The notes under the pieces were generated by a model. That model was not told the DNA's origin. It was given only the letters and a program-made list of their open reading frames with translations, and searched no databases. A stretch of 64,000 bases of DNA from Sphyrna mokarran (Eukaryota), in the NCBI GenBank assembly GCA_024679065.1, contig JAGIQG010000014.1, positions 21,576,001-21,640,000 of the forward strand, written 5' to 3'. Every line of letters starts with the position of its first letter. Within the stretch, counting starts at the first letter, position 1. Position numbers and translations under genes: made by a program. This document shows positions 3,813 to 54,364 of the stretch, piece after piece.

Positions 3813-5498
3813 TTGATCTTTGGCACACAAATTTGCACCCCCTTTATTGTGGAGTCCACTAGAGGTAGACAAAAATGTCGACGATCAACGTAAAACTTGA
3901 ATAAGGCACTGACTGAGTGTTAAAATGGGTGGCGTGGGCTTGTAGGGCCAAAGGGCCTGTTTCCTGTGCTGTGTTGTTTTCTTATTCTTTGTTCTTGCTA
4001 TAGCTAACCCAGGAATGGGATAGCAATTGGAGTCAGTTCATTCTTCCTAATCTGGTGATAACAAAAAACAAATGTAGCAAATTGGAGGGGGAGGGGGTAA
4101 ATTTAGAAAGATGGCAAGTGGGTTACTGAGACGAAGTGGAAAATTTATTCTCCGGATTGTAGATCAACCACGCATCTTTAAAAAGAAGATTGCAAAGTTG
4201 TCGAGTAAATCCATCCAGCTAAAAAAGAGACTACTTCTCGATTCAGGATGGCATGAATAATTAAAGGTTAGAAATGAACTAAAATTGAAGAAAAGGACAT
4301 GGCAGTGTGTTAAAACTGATGAAAAAGGAGAATATATAAGTAAAGACAAGTAACTAAGTAAAAAGAGGAAAAATTAAGATATATGAAGGGGTCTGTTGAT
4401 TGTTCATTTCCTGAAGTACTTTTTCCAAGCCTAGTAGACCCTTCAGTAAATTTAGACTATTTTACATATTCAGAAACACTCAGACAGTTACTTCCTCATA
4501 CAGGGTATAAATCCAGAGGGCCAGTAACCCTGACACTCCACATAATGTACACATGCAGGGCTCACTGATTGGACAAATCATTGCTGCCTTAATCAGGGAG
4601 CTTGTATTCTAAGAGGTCCACATTGTGAGCCTTGTTATAATCTTTATGTCCCTCCCTCTCTGGGACCAAAGAACATCAGCAGTTGAGAGCCTCTTGAGAT
4701 GTTTAAGCTCTAGGTTTGGTTCCTCAAGCTCTACATCTGATATAGGTGAGATGTAGTGAACTGGTTCTCATCTCTTTTGTCTAGCGCACTTTCTTCAGGT
4801 AGTGAGGGAATAGACCGGGCTACGTCTGCTATGTCCAATAACTGGAACTGGAGAGCAGGAACTGGCGGCTCTTAAAAGAGTTTCCACAGCTTCTGACCAC
4901 CTGAAAGTTTAAATGTCCAGTTATTTCCTTAGGATGGCATCCCCTATGCGGGGGTGGAGGGAGTACATAAAGTGACTTGAAAATAAACATGGGGATTTCA
5001 AAACTCGCACCAGACTGAGAGTGATCTTACAGATTAGCATCCATCTAAGCTGGAATGACAAAGAGTTGAAAACAGTCTTTTGCACATTATTTTGAGACTG
5101 TGTCTCAAAAGCTTCATAACATGACTTACTTCTGTTTGTTTGGGTGCATTTCATGTCTTTGATGTCAGGGAGGGAGGTGCCTGGATAATATATTTATCCA
5201 GAGTTGCCTCCGTACTGAACTCACAGAATTCAACATAGCACAAGCTGTAACTATCCGTGAATCAATTTCTCAAACTGTTGGTTTATTCTCCTTGTCTGGT
5301 AAGTCACTTAATTCCTTCAAACGCAAGTCAATATTTTTTAAATTTAAATTTAATACAACTTGTTTTCTAACCTTACCATGCATATAAACGGTTTCTCGCC
5401 ACTGCTCATGAAGAAAAAACTTGTTTTATTCAGTGATGCTCACAATCAAGGCAGTCACAGAAGTATAAGAAATGGGGCGTGAAGTTTATATAGAGCAA

Positions 5499-6310
5499 TT
5501 TGATTTGATTTGATTTATAATTGTCACATGTATTAATATACAGTGAAAATTATTGTTTCTTATGCGCTGTACAGACAAGATGTGGAAATGCCGGCATTGG
5601 ACTGAGGTAAACACAGTAAGAAGTCTCACATCACCAGGTTAAAGTCCAACCAGTTTATTTGATAGTAAACCCACAAGCTTTCAGAAATGCTGTTCCTTCA
5701 TCACGTGTGTGGGAAGTTCTGATCAGAGAAAGGTATATAAACAGTTCTGTAAACTGTGTGTGCCTTTAAACGCCCTTCTCTGATCAGAACCTTCCACACA
5801 CCATAATGAAGAAACAGTGTTTCCGAAAGCTTGTGGATTTACTATCAAATAAACTGGTTAAACTTTAGCCTGTGTTGTGAGACTTCTTATTATACAGGCA
5901 AAGCATACCGTTCATAAAGAAGGAAATGAGAGAGTGCGGAATGTAGTGTTACAGTCATAGCTAGAGTGTAGAGAAAGATCAACTTAATGCAAGGTAAGTC
6001 CATTTCAAAAGTCTGATAGCAGCAGGGAAGAAGCTGTTCTTGATCAGTTGGTATGTGACATCAGACTTTTATATCTTTTTCCTGACGATGGAAGAGAGAA
6101 TGTCGGGGGTAACTCAGGTCCTTAATTATGCTGGCTAATTTGCCGAGGCAGCGGCAAGTGTAGGCAGAGTCAATGGATAGAAGGCTGGTTTGCATGATGG
6201 ATTGGACATTCACGATCTTTTGTATTCCTTGTGATTTTGGGCAGAGCAGGAGTCATACCAAGCAGTTTTACAACCAGAAAGAATGCTTTCTATGGTGCAC
6301 CTGTAAAAAC
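5499..6310 (-). mobile_element. Rex1/Babar-type LINE 3' end with (ATCAA)n tail, interrupted by a Penelope hairpin element
   Basis: Minus translation FYRCTIESILSGCKTAWYDSCSAQ. The tttgatttgatttgattt run at 5499-5517 is the tail. Confidence 0.7.
5579..5890. mobile_element. Palindromic Penelope pseudo-LTR pair with two degenerate hammerhead motifs
   Basis: 5597-5735 is the reverse complement of 5770-5889. Flanks TGTACAGACAA (5568-5578) and TATACAGGCAA (5891-5901) form an imperfect TSD. Confidence 0.8.
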
Positions 6311-9300
6311 TATAAGAAAACATCTCAAGGTCAGCAATGGGAAATAGGCTATAGATAAACTGGTTTGGTGATGTTGGTTGAGAGATAATTGCTGACCAAG
6401 AGAACATCTTCCCTCTTTAGAATCATCTGAGTGTGGTCAAAACCAGAAAGAGGAGATGGGCAACCAGAATGACCTGTGTCCTCAACACTGCCAATCTGCA
6501 GCACTGCCAATGTGCTGCCCCGACCCATGCCACCATCCCACAGCTGCCAGTTCATACATGATTCAGACTGAACACCAGTTCAGCACTGACAACACGATAC
6601 CCTTTGCTGACCGTACTGCTACAATACGTGCCTTGATGTTTAATTTATTTAATCTGTCAATGCTTGCAGTTAATCACCCCGGATTCTGTGGAATATAGAG
6701 AGTTTCTCAGCATTTCCTTGTTAATTAGGCTTTCTCTCTCACCTCTCAGCTTGAAAACTGTACTGTCACAAGTTGCCTGAAATGTAAGTGGATAATAATG
6801 CAATGTGGGCACAGAGGTTGTGGGACCTCGATAAGTGACGGGACAGATATTGTCTTAACTAACGAAATTTAAATATTGAAAAAGAAATTAATATCAATAG
6901 CAAAAGACAAAGCAGTGAATTTTACAGCCCTTTTCGCTGGTAGGATTTTCCAGTCCAGCTGATGTCAATCCCATGCAACAGGTTCCCATGCAAGGCTGGA
7001 GACTGCAGACATCAGCAGAACTGGAAGACCCCACCACTGACCACTGGTGAGTTGTGTCAGCTGCTGAAAAACACAGGGGTGGGTGGGGCGAAAATCCCAT
7101 CCAAGTGATTTAGAGTCCAGTAGGAACAGAATGAGAAAATAAAAGGGACAGCAAGGTTAGATTAATAGAGAAAGAAAAACGAGATCTAAAAATAAAGTAA
7201 GAACCAGGAATACAGTAATTTGTTGAACCTCAGGATTTGAGAGTGAGCTATTGTTTTTGTGAGGATAAAGGAGGAGTAACTTGTGGTGATTCACAACCCA
7301 CAGAGTGTCTCTTCCTCACCACAGGTTTATATACTTTATGGTTTACATACAAGTACCAGCATGCATATTATAGAGCCGCCCTTGTTTTGCCAGCAAGATC
7401 AGGCCCAATAATTAATAAATGGCCAGTGTAATTATTGATACCACTGTTCAAATTAGAGAGCAAGACTCTTTTAGACTGATTACATCTGTTTTTTTGGGGA
7501 TTTTTTTCAAGCTTGTGTTTAGATGATGTTTGACTAATAAATACTTTGCTTTGGTTAAAAACCAGATATAGGCATTTACAAATCCTTGAATGGACCAGGA
7601 CAAGCTAAGACAAGCAGATTGCATACAGTTTGAGAGAGAGAGTTTCTCCCACTGCAGTGCTACACGAGGTCAGAAACTAGAGTCCAGTGTTTGATGGACA
7701 TGATAGACCTTGTTTCTCATGAAGAATGTAGCGTGGCTCAGTTATTTAAACTGTTTCTTTTATCCTATGTACAATGTGTGTTACAATATATAAAAGGTGG
7801 ATTACTGAGCGGGCACATCACCTGTCTGCTATACACAGTCTTTGACATCTGATTGTTGATGTCTCAAATATATCAGTTGTTTTTCTAGCTGTTCCCAGTG
7901 AGGGGATATTCTGGTTCTGCCGACTATGAACCCTGCTATGGGTTTCCCAATGGTGGAGGATGCAAACAATGGGAAAACTCATTGACAGTTGCCAATGGCA
8001 GGCCACCTCCCAGCGAGAGGGTGGAAAATCCTGCCCATAATCGACATTCATTAGCATCTCTATTGTTTTAACCCATGACACCACAGGCGGGATTTTACGG
8101 CCTCGCTTAAATGAGACCAGAACTTTCCACCCAAGGTCAACAGACATTCCCATTGTCCGCCCCTCGCTCGCCCCAAATTCTCTGGTGGGCAAAGCTGTAG
8201 AATTCCGGTGTACACTTCCCCACAAGTATACTATCTGCTTTTTTGAGAACAGTGTCAACTACATCAAAACTATGTACATCACATTTACTTTCAACTATTT
8301 ACACATGTTTAGGAACACCAATAGGTGAGAAGCCAGAAGTTCATTTTAAGGGATTAGTGACTGGAGGATGAATACATCAAGTTGGATTATTTTCTGGATA
8401 GCTGATCATGTCGCAAGTCATTTGATCACATGACAGTTAAGTGCACATGTCTGATCACATGACACTTGTCCACAATTTGCAAAAGTTGTTTGCATTTACC
8501 TCACAACCCTGCCCTCGCTATGTTTATGTACCTTTGCTTCCTTGTGGGAGGTTTTGATAATTGGGCTGAGAGGCAAATTAAGTAGACAGCCAAATGGAAA
8601 CCACAATCGCTAATTTGCTCCCAGGTTTCTGGTAGTCGTGCCCAAGGGTTACAGTTTCCACTCTGTCAGACTCCTCAACAATTCAGGAGGGTCAGCAACC
8701 CAATGAAGGGGCAACTAACCTGTCAACTGTCTAATATCAAACACAAGCTAGTCATCATGTCAAGAGAGTGAAAAATGGTTTGCATCTTTGGCTCAATGTG
8801 TTGAAGAGAAGATACAAATCTTCTAAAGGAAGGATATTAAAAAAAACAGAATTCCTGTCATTGATGTCATGAGGACAAAAGTGTACAGGAAACTAAGTTG
8901 AAATTTGCTACCAATTGAAATGAAATGCACATTCAATATAATTAGAAAAAATTGAAACTTGAGATTGGTAACCAAAGGAATGCTAGCTAGGAGTATTGTG
9001 ACTGGAGGAGCAGTGATGGAGGAAGGGTGCTTGAGAGGGATGAGGGGTGAATGAGGAGAGGTGATGGGGGGGTAATGTGAAGCAATGATGGGGGAGGAGT
9101 GATGAAGAGGGATCTTGATAAAGGGAATAGGTGATAAGGGAGAGGGGCAACAGAATAGTGCTAGCATTGTAGAAACATTATGCCCTCATAACTAAAGCTA
9201 TGATGGATGGAGGAGTGGTGCATGAGAAAAAGAATTAAGATGAGCTGATTGGAGGCTTGTTGACTGACAAAGTGCTTGTGGAGTGAGACAACTGAGGATG

Positions 9301-18419: not shown

Positions 18420-18722
18420 TGATCTGTGATAGTCATGTTTTGCACCCATAAGGGTGACCTCAACTGGGATCTTCGGTTCATGTCACATTACATGCAACCC
18501 CCACCATTTAGCCTGGGCTTGCAAAATCCTGCATTCCAACCATTATCTTGCAGTTGTATTTTGTCCATATATGTCGTGTTTATGAAACCTACCTCTTCAT
18601 TCACCTGACGAAGGTGCAGTGCTCCAAAAGCTCGTGATTCTAAATAAACCTCTTGGGCTTTAATCTGGTGTTGTGAGACTTTTTACTGTGCCCATTCTCA
18701 ACTAACATTGGCATCTCCATAT
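18420..18722 (+). mobile_element. Penelope-like element 3' end (pseudo-LTR) with mutated hammerhead motif
   Basis: ORF-end-like CTCAACTGGGATCTTCGGTTCATGTCACATTAC, then TCAC CTGACGA A GGTGC AGT GCTCC AAAA GCTC GTGA (18601-18637), then the tail shared with the hairpin elements. Confidence 0.75.
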
Positions 18723-18959
18723 CAGTAACAAAGAGAGAGCCATAGAAATTTGTTATCCCTGCAGACTTGCTAAATACCACCACCTATCTTCAAAGGTAAA
18801 CAATGGATTTTGATCAAATGACTTGTGGCCTGCAAGCCATTCATTCATGGGCCACAATACATCAACTAAGCTTATGGTCTTTGGAAAGTTTTAATATTAT
18901 GTTCTGAGACTCATAACTTAGCCTTCTCTAAGCTCCAGTCTTCAAACATCAAAACAGAA

Positions 18960-19458
18960 GTCTTTTTGTTGGTAAACACTTCAGTGGTCATGAGTAAGTG
19001 TTCTCCAAGGTGGCTTCATGACACACAACAGCACAGAGCGGCTGATCAGAGACTGATATGCAAGTTCTGCACACAAGGATGGCCTCAACCAGGATCTTGA
19101 GTTCACGTCACACTATTTGTAACCCCCAAGACTTACCTGGGCTTGCAAAATCTCACTTACTGTCCTGTCTGGAGACAATACACATTTCTTTAACCTATGC
19201 TTAATGCTATCTCCACTCACATTGACTGCATCTTTAAGATTTGATTAGCTATAAAGACTCACATTCTAAGCAGTATTCTGTAAATTGAGTGTAAGCCTTT
19301 ATATGCCCTGTTTGTGATTAGAACTCCCTATTCACCTGACGAAAGGGCACAGCCCCGAAAGCTAGTGACGTTTGCTAACAAAAAAACCTGTTGAACTTAA
19401 CCTGATGTGAGACTTCTTACCATGTTAACCCCAGTTCAACATCAGTATCTCTACACCA
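18960..19458 (+). mobile_element. Penelope-like element 3' end (GIY-YIG tail + pseudo-LTR) with hammerhead motif
   Basis: GGCCTCAACCAGGATCTTGAGTTCACGTCACACTAT, then TCAC CTGACGA A AGGGC ACA GCCCC GAAA GCTA GTGA (19332-19368). Confidence 0.75.
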
Positions 19459-30151: not shown

Positions 30152-30240
30152 TCAACTGAGTGAGGTGATGTTTGAGCGGCCACCAGGAGGCGCGACGATG
30201 CGATGACCACTGCGACGAGGGCCGTCGTCAACCTGAGCCC
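30152..30240 (-). CDS. dpysl3: CRMP/dihydropyrimidinase-like protein, last coding exon (G)[28 protein letters not shown]
   Basis: Acceptor ccttcctttcacttcacAG at 30241+; the phase-1 join with the upstream exon keeps frame. [15 protein letters not shown] is the CRMP1-4 C-terminus. Length and terminal ITSLS fit DPYSL3 best. The family is secure, the paralog tentative. Confidence 0.85.
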
Positions 30241-35965: not shown

Positions 35966-36125
35966 CTGAAAGACTGAAGCCAGATTGATGTAGATTTCGA
36001 ACTGGTTGGGGCTGTTTGGAAGGGGATGTCTTGGCTGATGCTGATGGGGTTCCTGCTTTGGGGGTTCCTAGGTCGTACACTGGGCCATCGTACATTCCCC
36101 TGGGTACACCACGCACTTGTGCCAA
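35966..36125 (-). CDS. dpysl3: CRMP/DPYSL penultimate coding exon (160 nt) [53 protein letters not shown](G)
   Basis: Acceptor ctctatctttcctAG and donor TCAG|[15 protein letters not shown] and [13 protein letters not shown] are diagnostic. The T-P/T-P/S/S-P-x-K cluster corresponds to CRMP2 T509/T514/S518/S522. Confidence 0.9.
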
Positions 36126-40852: not shown

Positions 40853-42501
40853 ATATAACCGTACCCACCTCAGCACGTTGAATGGCGGAGGGGTAGACAG
40901 ATAACTTAGCAATACCACTAACGTCAAGGGAACGTGGCTGGATTCTCTGTTGTTGGGAACGCTCATTGGCCCTGGCAATTGCGTGGTGTAAATGTTGCCG
41001 CGCGTCAGCCCAAGCTTGAATGTTGTCTAGATCTTGCCGCGTACGGACACAGGCTGCTTCAGTACCCGAGGAGTAACCGTATAGTGCTGAACAATGGCTG
41101 CAGTCACAAGTGAGGGAAATCAATCCTACAGGCATTCAATGGGTTAAACTTGGATAAACATACAGAGCTTCAGTGATAAATAGGAATGCTCAAGTTCTGC
41201 CAGGAACATGCAATACCCCATGGAAAATATTGCCGAAGACGTTCAGCATATTGATAGGCTGGCAGTAATTTATTTGCAGGGTGGCAGGAGCATGTATAAA
41301 TATTATTACAAGTCTGCACTAATTAACACTAATCCATCAGCATGGTACTAGGAAAACTAAAACCAGATGTTCCACGCGAAAAAAAATGATAACGGGATTA
41401 GTATGAATTACTGCTGGATCCACGATGAGTTAACGGGTGAATCAACAACCTGACATTTCCAATCTTTGCAGAGTAGGGCTGATGAAAAGGGTTTATCTGT
41501 TATTCAGAAACTCAAGGTGAAGGGCCAAGGCAAACCAAACAAGCATCACCAGACGAAAAGACGACGAGAAACGCAAGATAAATCAAATAGCAGAAGTGAT
41601 ACCCGCGCAGGTTTTAATAGTCTGCAGATTGTAAGGAGGAAGAAGCAAAGCAGCCGATGCTTGCTGCATTATGAACTCAGAAACATCGCTCCGATGGTGA
41701 CAGGAGCTTGCCTCATCCAACAGGATTGCGCAAAAATCTCCGCAATCGTCTTTAAAAACTTCTGTTTATTTGTCATCGGAATGAAGAAATGGTCAGATCC
41801 CTAAAATCCCACCCTCTGCTCTTTGAGCTGTTGTAGTTATTGGATGGATAATTTTATTTCCCTTCATCCAAGTGGTGTTGACCATCTGGTTGCTGCTCGA
41901 TTTGCTGACCTTTTGACTCAAGGCCAGTGCAGATCCTGCCTCTTTCAGTGTCTAAACACACTCACCCAGCAAGGAGTCAGGTGATAGGGCCCAGCATGGG
42001 GAGGGGAATTGGGAACAGGGGTCAGAGTCCAGCAAGAGGGGAAGGGGGATAAGATCCCAACAAGGTGGACAAAGCCCAGGGTTTTGAAGGGGAAACAGGC
42101 CAACAAAGGGGACGGGGGTGGGGGGAGGGTAAGAAATGGACTGAAGCCCAATGGGGAACATTTTGCCCCACTTTTGCCTGAAACTATGTTTAAACCCCAG
42201 GCATTACAGTATACGGAGGAATGGCTGGTTTCTGGAGCTTGGTCACAGATCAGTCACAATCACACTAAATCAACTCCTGTTCCTTTGTTCTCAATGTGTT
42301 TTATTTGATAATCTAACAGTTGCAGTGCTACAAGAAAACTCAGTGCACGTGAGGTACTTTGAAATATTTCTGAGCAACATTTTCTTTAAGTTTAATTTAA
42401 CCATTGCACCTGTGGTTTGCACCAAGTATAACTGGATATTTTTACTGGGAGGAGGGTACACAAACTGAATTCAGGCCCATCTCTGTTTTGAGAATTCATC
42501 A

Positions 42502-42797
42502 TGTAGAGATGCCAGCGTTGGATTGGGGTAAACACAGTAAAAAGTCTCACGACACCAGGTTAGAGTTCAACCAGTTTACTTGATAGTAATCTCAAGCTTT
42601 TGGAAACGGTGTTCCTTCGTCAGGTGTGTGGAAGGTTCTGATCAGAGAAGGGCATATATAAAATATATGCCCTTCTCTATGCCCTTCTCTGATTAGAACC
42701 TTCCACACATCTGACGAAGGAACACCATTCCGAAGGCTTGTGAGATTACTATCAAATAAACTGGTTGGACTTTACCCTGATGTTGTGAGACTTCTTA
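42502..42797. mobile_element. Palindromic Penelope pseudo-LTR pair with a hammerhead motif on each arm and a 14-bp TSD
   Basis: Exact direct repeat TTGAGAATTCATCA at 42488-42501 and 42798-42811. Arms ~42538-42655 and ~42679-42797 are reverse complements. Confidence 0.9.
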
Positions 42798-42984
42798 TTG
42801 AGAATTCATCAGCAGGGGGAGCTCTTATACTACTGAAGTTTTACCATCCACATCTAGCCATAACTGGGGCAGGCTAATTCTATAACTGACTCGAGTAGGC
42901 TAGCTCCAGACTGCGGACAATGATCTGGTCTGTGTGTGATAACTTATACACACACGTATAAGTGGGGGCATGAATGAAGATACA

Positions 42985-50793: not shown

Positions 50794-52656
50794 GCCAGTC
50801 CAATCAAATACAGATCTTTCCCTCTTTCATTCAGTACAAGTCCTGAATTACAAAATTTTCTTGCAAAGCGTCTTAATGAGACAACAATCTGCCTTAGTGT
50901 TTGTAGTAATGAGCCTCTTCCAATCGGGCAAATCCCGGTGATGAGCTTGAGCTAACTAACTTCTGGGAATTGAAGTATTTGGTCACATTATTCTCACTCT
51001 CGATAAATAGTTATTAGCATTATCAGTAGCTTTGTTGTTACTCTACTTGGCTTCCTGTTTTACGATATTACAGAGTTAAAAAGGATAGAAAATTTCATAC
51101 AATTCTTTTTCAAACAGCCAAAGGAAGTGTGATGGTATACCAACATCTTTCATAAGCATTTTTAAAGATTTAATTAGAGGAAAGTAACATCTCCAAAACA
51201 GCAATGTAACAACTAAGACATTGTGCCACGGTAATGACCCTGGGAGTGGTGAAAGGAATCATTGTAACTGTTTTTAAATGAAAGTGGTGTCAGATGGTGT
51301 GCAGTTGTAATCTAAAACTGCAGTTGCTCACTCACCTCCCCCCCCAACACAAGTACTAGGCAAAGTAAGAAAGTTCCAATCCCGTTGACTATTGTGACAC
51401 TGGGAAAGCAGGGAGGAAAATAATAAAAGATCATGTTGATTTTTTTTCATGGATTATGTCACCTCAAACCAAGTCTTGAATTGTCCTTCACTGACTCAGC
51501 GAACCAGCACTCAGGTCCTGTGCGGGTGTGGTTGAACCTCTAACCAACAATGAAGTTTCAATGCCAATTAACTTGGGTACTTTGTGATCCTATCCCCTAC
51601 CAACCACTGCACACAGACTTCCTCTGATCTCATACATATCCCCCACCATTCATCTTCCTGCACATGTCGTAGTTGCCATCATGTTCTGCCACTGCTGATG
51701 CCAGCACTTTTTTTTATGGTGCACAGTCACTTGAGATGGATCATTACAATCCCTGGGCATCCTTGTATGGGAAGAGTGGAAAACCAACTTGATCAGAAGG
51801 CCAGTCTATATTTGGCTCTCTGAGGCCCTTGAATCTTCCAAATTAAAGACATGTGATATAAAAATCCAAGCATCCAAAGTAAAAGCCTTCAAAAAGATGC
51901 CCAATTAAATTTGAGCTAATTATTGAGGCTGTGATTGCTGACACAACAGCTGCAGAGAGTTAGCTTGGCACACAGTCGTGAGATCAGCAGTGGGAGTTTT
52001 TGAGTTGCTATTCTAGTTTAGTGTGAGGAGTTAGTGATTAATTAATGCCAATGGAATTGAATACTTTTTAAAAGATTCATTGAAACTAGAAGTAGGTGGA
52101 GGCTATTCGGCCTTCGAGCCTGCTCATCCACTCATTTTGATTATGGCTGATGGTCAAATTCAATATCCTGATTCTCACCTTCTACCCCACATCCCTTCAG
52201 CCCCAAGAACTATACCTAATTGCTTCTTGAAATCAGACAAAGTTTTGGCTTCAACTACTTTCTGTGGTACTGAATTCCACACATTCCCCCACTCTCTGGG
52301 TGAAGAAATTTCTCCTCACCTCAGTTCTAAAAGGTTTACCCCTTATCCTCAAACTACAGGGCCCCAATTCTGGATTCCCCCACCATTGGGAACCTTCTTT
52401 CTTGATTTATCCTGTCTAACCCTGTTGGATTTTAAAAGTTTCTGAGACCCTCCCCCTTCTCACTTTTTTAACTTCTTGAATATAAAGCTGACAGGCTTAG
52501 ACCAATTACTTCCCTTCTAGTCATGAGAAACAGAGCAAGTCTTTAGTTTATTGCAGTATCTCTACTTCTGAGTTAGAAGTAAAAGGTTCAGGTCCCACTC
52601 CAGGCAGGCAACCTGAGTGAAGGACCACAATATGTTCTCTGGATATTGAGTCGACA

Positions 52657-52823
52657 TGATGCAGAGATGTTGGCATTGGACAGGGATAAACACAGTAACA
52701 AGTCTCACAACACTCTCCAGTCACCTGACGAAAGAACAGAGTTCTGAAAGCTAGTGATGTTTATTACCAAATAAACCTGTTAGACTTTAACCTGGTATTG
52801 TGAGATGTCTTACTGTGTTTACC
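52657..52823. mobile_element. 167-bp Penelope-derived hairpin insertion carrying a hammerhead motif
   Basis: Flanks GAGTCGACA (52648-52656) and GAGTTGACA (52824-52832). 52687-52713 pairs with 52795-52821. Confidence 0.8.
52721..52757 (+). ncRNA. Minimal type-I hammerhead ribozyme motif, core intact
   Basis: TCAC CTGACGA A AGAAC AGA GTTCT GAAA GC TA GTGA: 4-bp stem I, 5-bp stem II, CUGANGA and GAAA boxes, palindromic AGCU stem III, predicted cut after CUA. Activity untested. Confidence 0.75.
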
Positions 52824-52945
52824 GAGTTGACACCCAGCGATGATTCCAGACTGGATAGAGTGACCAGAGGCTCAGCAATGGTTTTCCCACCTGAGTAAAA
52901 TTTTACAACACCAATTTTAAATCCAACCAATTTATTTGATAGTAA

Positions 52946-52985
52946 ATCCGCGAGCTTTCGACTTTACCGCCTTCGTCAGGCGAAT
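52946..52985 (-). ncRNA. Minimal type-I hammerhead ribozyme motif, core intact, sense to the DPYSL pre-mRNA
   Basis: Minus strand ATTCGC CTGACGA A GGC GGTAAA GTC GAAA GC TC GCGGAT: 6-bp stem I (one G-U), 3-bp stem II, predicted cut after CUC, followed by a pseudo-LTR tail to ~52900. Confidence 0.7.
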
Positions 52986-54364
52986 GCCATTTGCCACCTG
53001 AGTTAGAAGCACAAGGACTTCCTTGTATAAGTGCTTCCATACTCCGCCACAGTGCGTGTGCATGTTTTGGAAGAAGGCAATTTTTTTTCCAAACTCCTTT
53101 GTGATGTTTCTTTTCCCAGAACTACTATTCAAGGTTTAACTTAAGTGGAGCAAATGATTTCCTGAGCCTTGAAACAAGAAGGAATTGAATACTGAACTAA
53201 CCAAAGATTGAAAATAGACGGACATCACTGTGTGCGCTACAAGTCATAACTAAGTGAACAAACTTTCCGACTGGATTAAGTAAGCCAAACTGAAGTGACA
53301 GCTACTGACATGAGTAATGTATCCTAACAGATTGAGAAGTGCTCCAGGCTCTTTGCGCAGGAATGTTTCACAATCGCATTTTTGCCCAGTTCCTTCTGCC
53401 CAAGAATGAGCTCCATATATAGTGGAGCTGTACATCAATCAGGGGAAAAAAAATTCTTTGAACTCTTCTCTTCATCTGCTTTCTGGGACAGAAAGGTGCT
53501 GACATCATGTTGGTGCAATGCATTTGCGAAGTATTACATTATAAAGCGGTGAAATGTCCATTTAAAGAGAGAATGGATTTCTTTGCCCCTGTTCTGCTTT
53601 CCTTCATTTTGAAGCACAGGAAATGGAATCGGTTGTTCAGCCCATCAAGCCAACTCTGCCGTTTTGTTAAACATAAAACCACAGAAGGATGTCATTTGGC
53701 TCATCTTGTCCATGTCTGCCCAAAGTACTCTCTCTAATCCCACCCTCCTGCACATGGCCCATTGCCCTGTCACTTACAACACTTAAAAGTGCTGATCCAG
53801 GCAGTTTTAAAAAGGTCTCTGCTTTTATGTAAAAAAAGTTATTGCTCATGCCGGCTCTACACCTACTGCCACTTAACCTTGAAACTATGTCCCTACTTGT
53901 CATCTTTTCAACCCTGTTCCTCTCTTTTACCATTTTCTATAATACCTATTTTTTTGGGATATCTTAGTATGATTTAAACATCTCAATTGACTCTGCATCA
54001 ATGGCCTTTACACGGCAGCGAATTTTTGTAATACTTTCACACAGATCTTTTTCAACAGATTCAACTCTGTACTTGTTGACATGTATTGGCCGCTAGCACA
54101 TTCTATGAAAATAGGAACAGGAGTGGCATCAAGTCTGTTCCAATATTCAATGGCATTATGCTAAATTGTGATCTAACTCAATATACCCACTATGGCTCCA
54201 CACCTCCCAGTACCTTTGGGTAACAAACATTTATCAATCTCTAGATTTATGATTGACATTATCACCCAGCATCAACCGATGCTTGTGCATGAGTTTTCTA
54301 AACTTTTAATATGTAGCGTGTTTTCTAATTTCACTTGCCCCAGATCACTTCAATATATATAGCG

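Follow-up and report, generated by a model that had tools for sequence, protein, structure and literature searches.

Two hammerhead ribozyme motifs, A and B, lie on opposite strands within one DPYSL3-like intron and are terminal-repeat hammerheads of Penelope-like elements (PLEs), left by two truncated insertions and most likely inert in the host gene, a reading that we hold with a probability of about 90%. The ribozyme would act in the RNA cycle of the element itself, either as a dimer or together with the element protein, and would be kept by selection in source copies only. The cores at this locus are still intact, presumably because B is young and because A has so far been spared hits to its core. 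In the pre-mRNA of the DPYSL3-like gene, B is predicted to fold back on antisense A, which would prevent the active fold.

Minimal type-I hammerheads in a DPYSL3-like intron

Direct reading and a descriptor scan of the window (the whole 64,000-nucleotide [nt] stretch of DNA that was analyzed) identify both motifs as minimal type-I hammerheads, 188 nt apart (Table 1), and bear out an earlier note that described two opposite-strand hammerheads with intact cores and paired stems. Each has the CUGANGA/GAAA/UH core closed by helices I and II. In A, stem I pairs positions 52720 to 52724 with 52754 to 52758 (5 bp, including one G-U), stem II pairs 52733 to 52737 with 52741 to 52745 (5 bp), and the core consists of CUGACGA (52725 to 52731), an extra A (52732), GAAA (52746 to 52749), GC, and UA as the UH (52752 to 52753). 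In B, stem I pairs 52985 to 52980 with 52951 to 52946 (6 bp), and the core consists of CUGACGA (52979 to 52973), the extra A, GAAA (52959 to 52956), GC, and UC as the UH (52953 to 52952). Stem II of B has 3 bp, and a private change at base 52968 abolishes the fourth pair present in family copies.

Helix III is absent from A and B, and both carry the palindromic AGCU, as do 75 of 84 family copies. The extra nucleotide, A in both motifs, is also A in 81 of the 84 core-intact copies. B has the G10.1-C11.1 pair, for which A carries A-U instead; this pair is G-C in 36 of the 84 family copies, G-U in 38, A-U in 6, and something else in 4, a spread consistent with CpG decay of G-C. The stem sequences of the two motifs had been said to differ completely, but A and B are homologous and align end to end. 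With a tight core pattern, the window yields 3 matches and 100 shuffles yield none, so the motifs are not products of chance; a loose pattern gives 12 matches in the window against a shuffle mean of 7.2, which is not significant. An Rfam scan with a threshold of E ≤ 10 turned up no hammerhead family, an uninformative outcome that is probably due to models expecting helix III.

TABLE 1 Positions of the hammerheads, the two insertions, the host gene features, and related element copies
Feature	Position	Strand	Details
Hammerhead A	52720..52758	+	Minimal type-I, antisense to host gene; predicted cut 52753/52754; A10.1-U11.1
Hammerhead B	52946..52985	-	Minimal type-I, sense to host gene; predicted cut 52952/52951
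TSD of insertion A, left	52648..52656	+	9 bp, 1 mismatch vs 52824-52832
Inverted duplicate of PLE 3' end with tail, without hammerhead	52657..52713	-	Model positions 241-296
5'-truncated pLTR 3' end, older subfamily A	52712..52823	+	Best local relatives match 102/112 nt
TSD of insertion A, right	52824..52832	+	
TSD of insertion B, left	52883..52896	+	14 bp
5'-truncated pLTR 3' end, young subfamily B	52897..52989	-	93 nt, tail absent
TSD of insertion B, right	52990..53003	+	14 bp
Last exon, coding part to stop codon, DPYSL3-like	30152..30240	-	
Penultimate coding exon, DPYSL3-like	35966..36125	-	Acceptor closes ~29.7-kb intron containing motifs
Donor of ~29.7-kb intron	~1.9 kb past window end (L031:1857)	-	
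Young B-subfamily PLE copies with open frames	L098:1866-4346, L099:2527-4935, L100:2854-5130, L101:2274-4574		

Exon matches within the window and just past its end identify the host gene as DPYSL3-like, on the minus strand; the exon just past the window end scores best against DPYSL3 (97 bits, versus 85 for DPYSL2). The two exons in Table 1 uphold the placement of the motifs inside a DPYSL intron, and both motifs fall within the same intron of about 29.7 kb; the orientation of the exons likewise agrees with the claim that B lies on the DPYSL sense strand. The PLE fragments in the known gene span comprise 6 in sense and 4 in antisense orientation, numbers too small to speak to an orientation bias. 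A fragment of another high-copy repeat occupies 52300 to 52435, just upstream of the motif region.

A young and abundant Penelope-like family

The repeat bearing both hammerheads is the end of the pLTR in a Penelope-like element. Queried against its own genome, A returned 4,302 first-look candidates and B returned 1,232; among the 40 of these 1,232 that were scored, 39 are other full-length matches at 97 to 98%. All 19 of the retrieved B copies have intact cores, and 11 have open reading frame (ORF) pieces nearby. Copies have a common 3' end and a variable 5' end, with RT and endonuclease pieces directly upstream of A-type and of B-type ends, and the longer copies hold open frames of 759 to 827 amino acids. 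Compared with Pfam, the long ORFs matched RVT_1 above the cut-off in three of three cases and GIY-YIG with an E value of about 3e-4 in three of three, the latter with scores (21.2 to 21.4) just below the cut-off of 22.6; three short pieces of broken ORFs gave no Pfam match. This association with an RT and GIY-YIG ORF substantiates the link, drawn previously, to the minimal type-I hammerheads of Penelope-like elements, with their palindromic AGCU. The proteins closest to the PLE ORFs are from sharks (83 to 87%). Between RT and endonuclease the ORFs read a CX4CXXC linker, which falls within the CX2-5CxxC pattern; a linker of this type between RT and EN is described as a mark of Neptune and Nematis (PMC8557442), and by the linker motif alone the shark PLE would be assigned to a Neptune-type clade.

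B differs from a young multicopy subfamily at only 3 positions and, judged from its sequence, is a very young copy; its family may have been active recently. Several other copies have the same frameshift in the RT region.

The frequency of the repeat was estimated from 60 evenly spaced 10-kb stretches (600 kb, drawn from five large contigs only), which contain 49 fragments (37 A-type and 12 B-type), with at least one in 27 of the 60. Genome-wide, this extrapolates to about 2.3 x 10^5 PLE ends (bootstrap, 1.5 to 3.0 x 10^5). The motif is spanned by 26 of the 49 sampled fragments and its core is intact in 11 of these 26, for an estimate, extrapolated from the 600 kb, of about 5 x 10^4 intact cores in the genome. 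The window itself contains 9 fragments of the repeat in all, 6 of them besides the A and B insertions. A longer A-type pLTR end lies outside the gene at 19172 to 19456 (plus strand) and has an intact core at 19335 to 19364, and a diverged pLTR end at 18520 to 18723 (plus strand) has a broken one. A-type ends form tail-out inverted pairs, accompanied by TSD-like repeats, at 5579 to 5894 and at 42500 to 42814, the latter in the same intron as motifs A and B, and all four of their cores are broken.

The family displays 5' truncation, fixed 3' ends with an optional tail, inverted adjacent copies, and TSDs: its 3' ends form two groups about 35 nt apart (measured from the cut site, approximately +59 to +67 and +96 to +101), and it includes tail-out inverted pairs whose TSD-like repeats reach about 15 bp. 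About 100 nt separate the cut site from the apparent ORF start downstream of it. Piling up of 5' ends at the hammerhead cut site was considered and rejected: after removal of 14 duplicates from 218 fragments, 3 of the remaining 204 start within 6 nt of it, with no peak. In these 204 random and gene-region fragments, 5' boundaries are commonest immediately ahead of the hammerhead, 24 to 50 nt upstream of the cut site, an excess that may reflect a truncation bias or an alignment artifact of subfamily divergence.

Relationship to described elements

A and B belong to a class described in 2014, including their arrangement as an opposite-strand pair (comparisons with published systems refer to the accessible portions of the cited papers). 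The minimal hammerheads of PLEs (Cervera and De la Pena 2014, PMC4209133) have, as A and B do, a type-I core without helix III, an extra nucleotide at 9/10.1, a palindromic 15.2-16.2, and a short helix I; they occur in thousands of mostly solo, truncated copies, as in the shark, and as dual motifs 100 to 700 bp apart on opposite strands, like A and B. On primary structure, A and B thus possess the tested features of this class, from which only A departs, by the absence of G10.1-C11.1. Helix II has 3 to 5 bp in A and B versus 7 to 8 bp in Schistosoma (PMC4209133), and the roughly 5 x 10^4 intact cores extrapolated for the shark exceed the 4,000 to 9,000 given for coelacanth and Xenopus (PMC4209133), counts obtained by different methods. 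Sharks are not among the organisms named in the accessible text of that paper.

The shark family also resembles EN+ PLEs of the Neptune type (PMC8557442, PMC11167929), which have one ORF combining RT with a GIY-YIG at the C terminus, together with pLTRs, 5' truncation, an adjacent inverted truncated copy, and a 30- to 40-bp tail at one end, a tail that has been explained by two RT start sites (PMC11167929). Unlike full EN+ PLEs, the A/B locus retains no PLE ORF. The ORF of the anole element Poseidon starts inside the hammerhead (PMC11167929), whereas the apparent start in the shark PLE lies downstream of the cut.

A literature search of incomplete coverage listed no paper on shark PLE hammerheads, so such elements may already be in print. 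The A/B pair in itself matters little, being one more among some 2 x 10^5 retroelement ends, and only evidence of B cutting host pre-mRNA would raise its importance. The young shark PLE family, with its long open frames and many hammerhead variants, is usable for probing the role of PLE hammerheads.

Predicted masking of B in the host transcript

The earlier note proposed that B could cut the DPYSL intron; its predicted pairing with antisense A, together with decay of cores at the rate of their flanks (see below), leaves this proposal unsupported. In the predicted fold of the sense strand from 52650 to 53005 (MFE, -108 kcal/mol; z, -4.05), B pairs end to end with antisense A, and its core is paired in both the MFE and the centroid structures. 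Since A is on the opposite strand, no cis dimer with B can form, and the convergent layout is predicted to mask the B core and to offer no dimer activation. Among the copies found, the closest in sense orientation with an intact core lies at a distance of about 44 kb, and the core of the sense copy at 42500 to 42659 is broken. As a bare motif, B has a stem pair probability of 0.28, versus 0.87 for family copies, and this falls to no more than 0.02 when flanks of 10 to 20 nt are included. Ordinary young B copies are also predicted to misfold in context (stem pair probability of at most 0.09 with 40-nt flanks), so folding alone does not distinguish B at the DPYSL3-like locus. A paired, selected switch-off through the two changes in the hammerhead of B was rejected, one change being common to 36 other copies and only one being private.

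In published work, a lone minimal hammerhead failed to cleave and dimers were weak (PMC4209133). The hammerhead of an anole PLE cleaved only with protein and was dispensable for insertion in vitro, and the binding site of the anole protein was hypothesized to lie in the initial 172 nt of its ORF (PMC11167929). It is quite unlikely, in our estimation, that B occasionally cuts the DPYSL3-like pre-mRNA, as an unselected side effect, through PLE protein or through AGCU pairing in trans with an abundant PLE transcript. B does lie in sense orientation with its core intact, it has G10.1-C11.1 and 6 bp in stem I, it belongs to a young family with long open frames, and protein-assisted cleavage in vitro has the anole precedent. 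However, B ends before the ORF, inside which the anole protein site is hypothesized to lie (a different element, and a guide only); its stem II is weakened by the private change; its stems are predicted scarcely to form with short flanks and its core to be paired to antisense A; and anole RNA-seq is reported to contain no reads ending at the hammerhead site (PMC11167929). A broader proposal, that young sense PLE hammerheads cut host pre-mRNAs when given protein or partner RNA and that antisense A is a safety catch allowing B to be tolerated, is decidedly improbable; if true, tens of thousands of intact cores would constitute a transposon-switched layer of intron cleavage in the shark genome.

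Selection in source elements and decay after insertion

Inverted pairs produced in the same insertion event cleanly distinguish decay that follows insertion from selection acting in source elements. The two arms are assumed to be identical at insertion, so any differences between arms represent later decay only. In the 27 distinct same-event pairs (reduced from 29 by dropping L077 and L106 as duplicates), non-CpG differences affect 14 of 228 core sites and 277 of 3,481 flank sites (P = 0.37), and CpG differences affect 27 of 58 core sites and 41 of 98 flank sites (P = 0.62). Both cores are intact in 7 of the 27 pairs, and excluding loci picked with a motif-containing query gives the same result. 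The earlier note had itself held that cores decaying like their flanks would count against a functional reading, and such decay is what the family exhibits, with 41 core differences in these pairs against 39.1 expected. With its few pairs, this test would overlook selection confined to a minority of copies, and there is room for some selection on cores after insertion; a further point on this side is that both cores at the A/B locus are intact.

Pairing within the stems speaks to the source copies. Of the 624 cells that the first four pairs of stem I and of stem II make up in 78 distinct variants with intact cores, 560 are paired, compared with 213 to 284 in slid controls and a maximum of 494 in 1,000 column shuffles (a shuffle that ignores relatedness). 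The stems therefore covary across subfamilies, indicating that the fold is kept by selection in source elements. Relative to the family model, a comparison that mixes source differences with later decay, non-CpG differences are fewer in the core (8 of 261) than in the flanks (504 of 5,229; P = 1e-4; 29 copies obtained with a query lacking the motif), and 11 cores are intact versus 6.8 expected. After base matching, with 17 polymorphic columns dropped, there are 6 core differences versus 11.8 expected (P = 0.047). We ascribe the lower core divergence from the family model to selection in source lineages.

Two independent insertions

Motifs A and B are two independent PLE insertions from two subfamilies, each with its own TSDs, and not one unit. 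Motif A was previously placed in a 167-bp hairpin with a 9-bp TSD. The TSD stands, with one mismatch, and encloses exactly 167 bp, but pairing is limited to 27 nt (52687 to 52713 with 52795 to 52821) because the hairpin is due to an inverted duplicate of the element 3' end, a 57-nt copy that includes the tail, as is usual for PLEs (PMC8557442). The 14-bp TSD of B was missed in the earlier note. In a TSD search, control lengths reach 10 bp and only repeats of at least 11 bp, present in 14 of 43 units, are clearly above chance; what supports the 9-bp TSD of A is that its two copies are placed exactly at the ends of the insertion.

In the sequence of events that we envisage, A would have inserted first, leaving the inverted duplicate of the 3' end and a tail at just one side, and B would have followed later, by chance, 60 nt away. 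At each event, the PLE endonuclease would have cut the target and RT would have copied only the last 90 to 110 nt of the pLTR. By genome-wide extrapolation, about 1,400 B fragments are expected by chance within 200 nt of an A fragment.

Two sequencing runs from more distant genomes, X4 and X8, have flanks that are about 90% alike. In these runs, one contig of single-copy depth covers 52844 to 52877 and 52994 to 53300, with 93 and 84 letters left of 52994, and the left-flank contigs continue into the A arm. This contig arithmetic fits the presence of A and the absence of B, as we infer for both runs. Separately, relative to A, B has a far greater summed contig depth in X1 than in X4 or X8 (52878 to 53013; X1, X2, and X3 versus X4, X7, and X8), which hints that subfamily B expanded in this lineage, depth not being copy number.

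The apparent absence of B from X4 and X8, despite the similar flanks, bears on whether B is now a domesticated regulator of DPYSL3 acting from its intron, in the manner of the amniote RECK and CTCL/C10orf118 hammerheads (PMC6155905). Those ribozymes are type-I and located on the sense strand of introns, properties shared by B only, which also has an intact core; they are few-copy, are conserved across amniote lineages, and resemble retroelement hammerheads that have tertiary contacts, whereas B is young, multicopy, and minimal. Being neither few-copy nor of canonical, Rfam-matching architecture, separated by just 3 differences from a young multicopy subfamily, and one of some 5 x 10^4 intact cores in the genome, B is very improbable as a domesticated regulator.

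A and B can also be compared with animal non-LTR retrozymes (PMC7229834; bioRxiv 10.64898/2026.07.22.740005), which are, like A and B, noncoding, PLE-related, and equipped with type-I hammerheads and TSDs of more than 4 bp. Retrozymes are same-strand tandems with mostly canonical hammerheads and circular RNA (PMC7229834), whereas A and B are opposite-strand, solo, minimal fragments and do not form same-strand tandem units each with a hammerhead; in its accessible text, the retrozyme survey (bioRxiv 10.64898/2026.07.22.740005) covers one cartilaginous fish. That the 330-bp stretch holding A and B is a single retrozyme-like miniature mobile RNA, as the earlier note offered, is exceedingly improbable, for although two hammerheads lie within 270 nt and the RNA folds strongly, the motifs are on opposite strands and from different subfamilies, their TSDs are separate with a spacer of about 50 nt between them, a tandem repeat search at the locus found none, no scored match among the A and B candidates spans both parts, the left flank gave a single match as a lower bound, and neighbors as close as these are expected by chance.

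A 19-nt direct repeat of host sequence (52568 to 52586 and 52998 to 53016; 17 of 19 positions alike) flanks both insertions and has a short word in common with the B target site.
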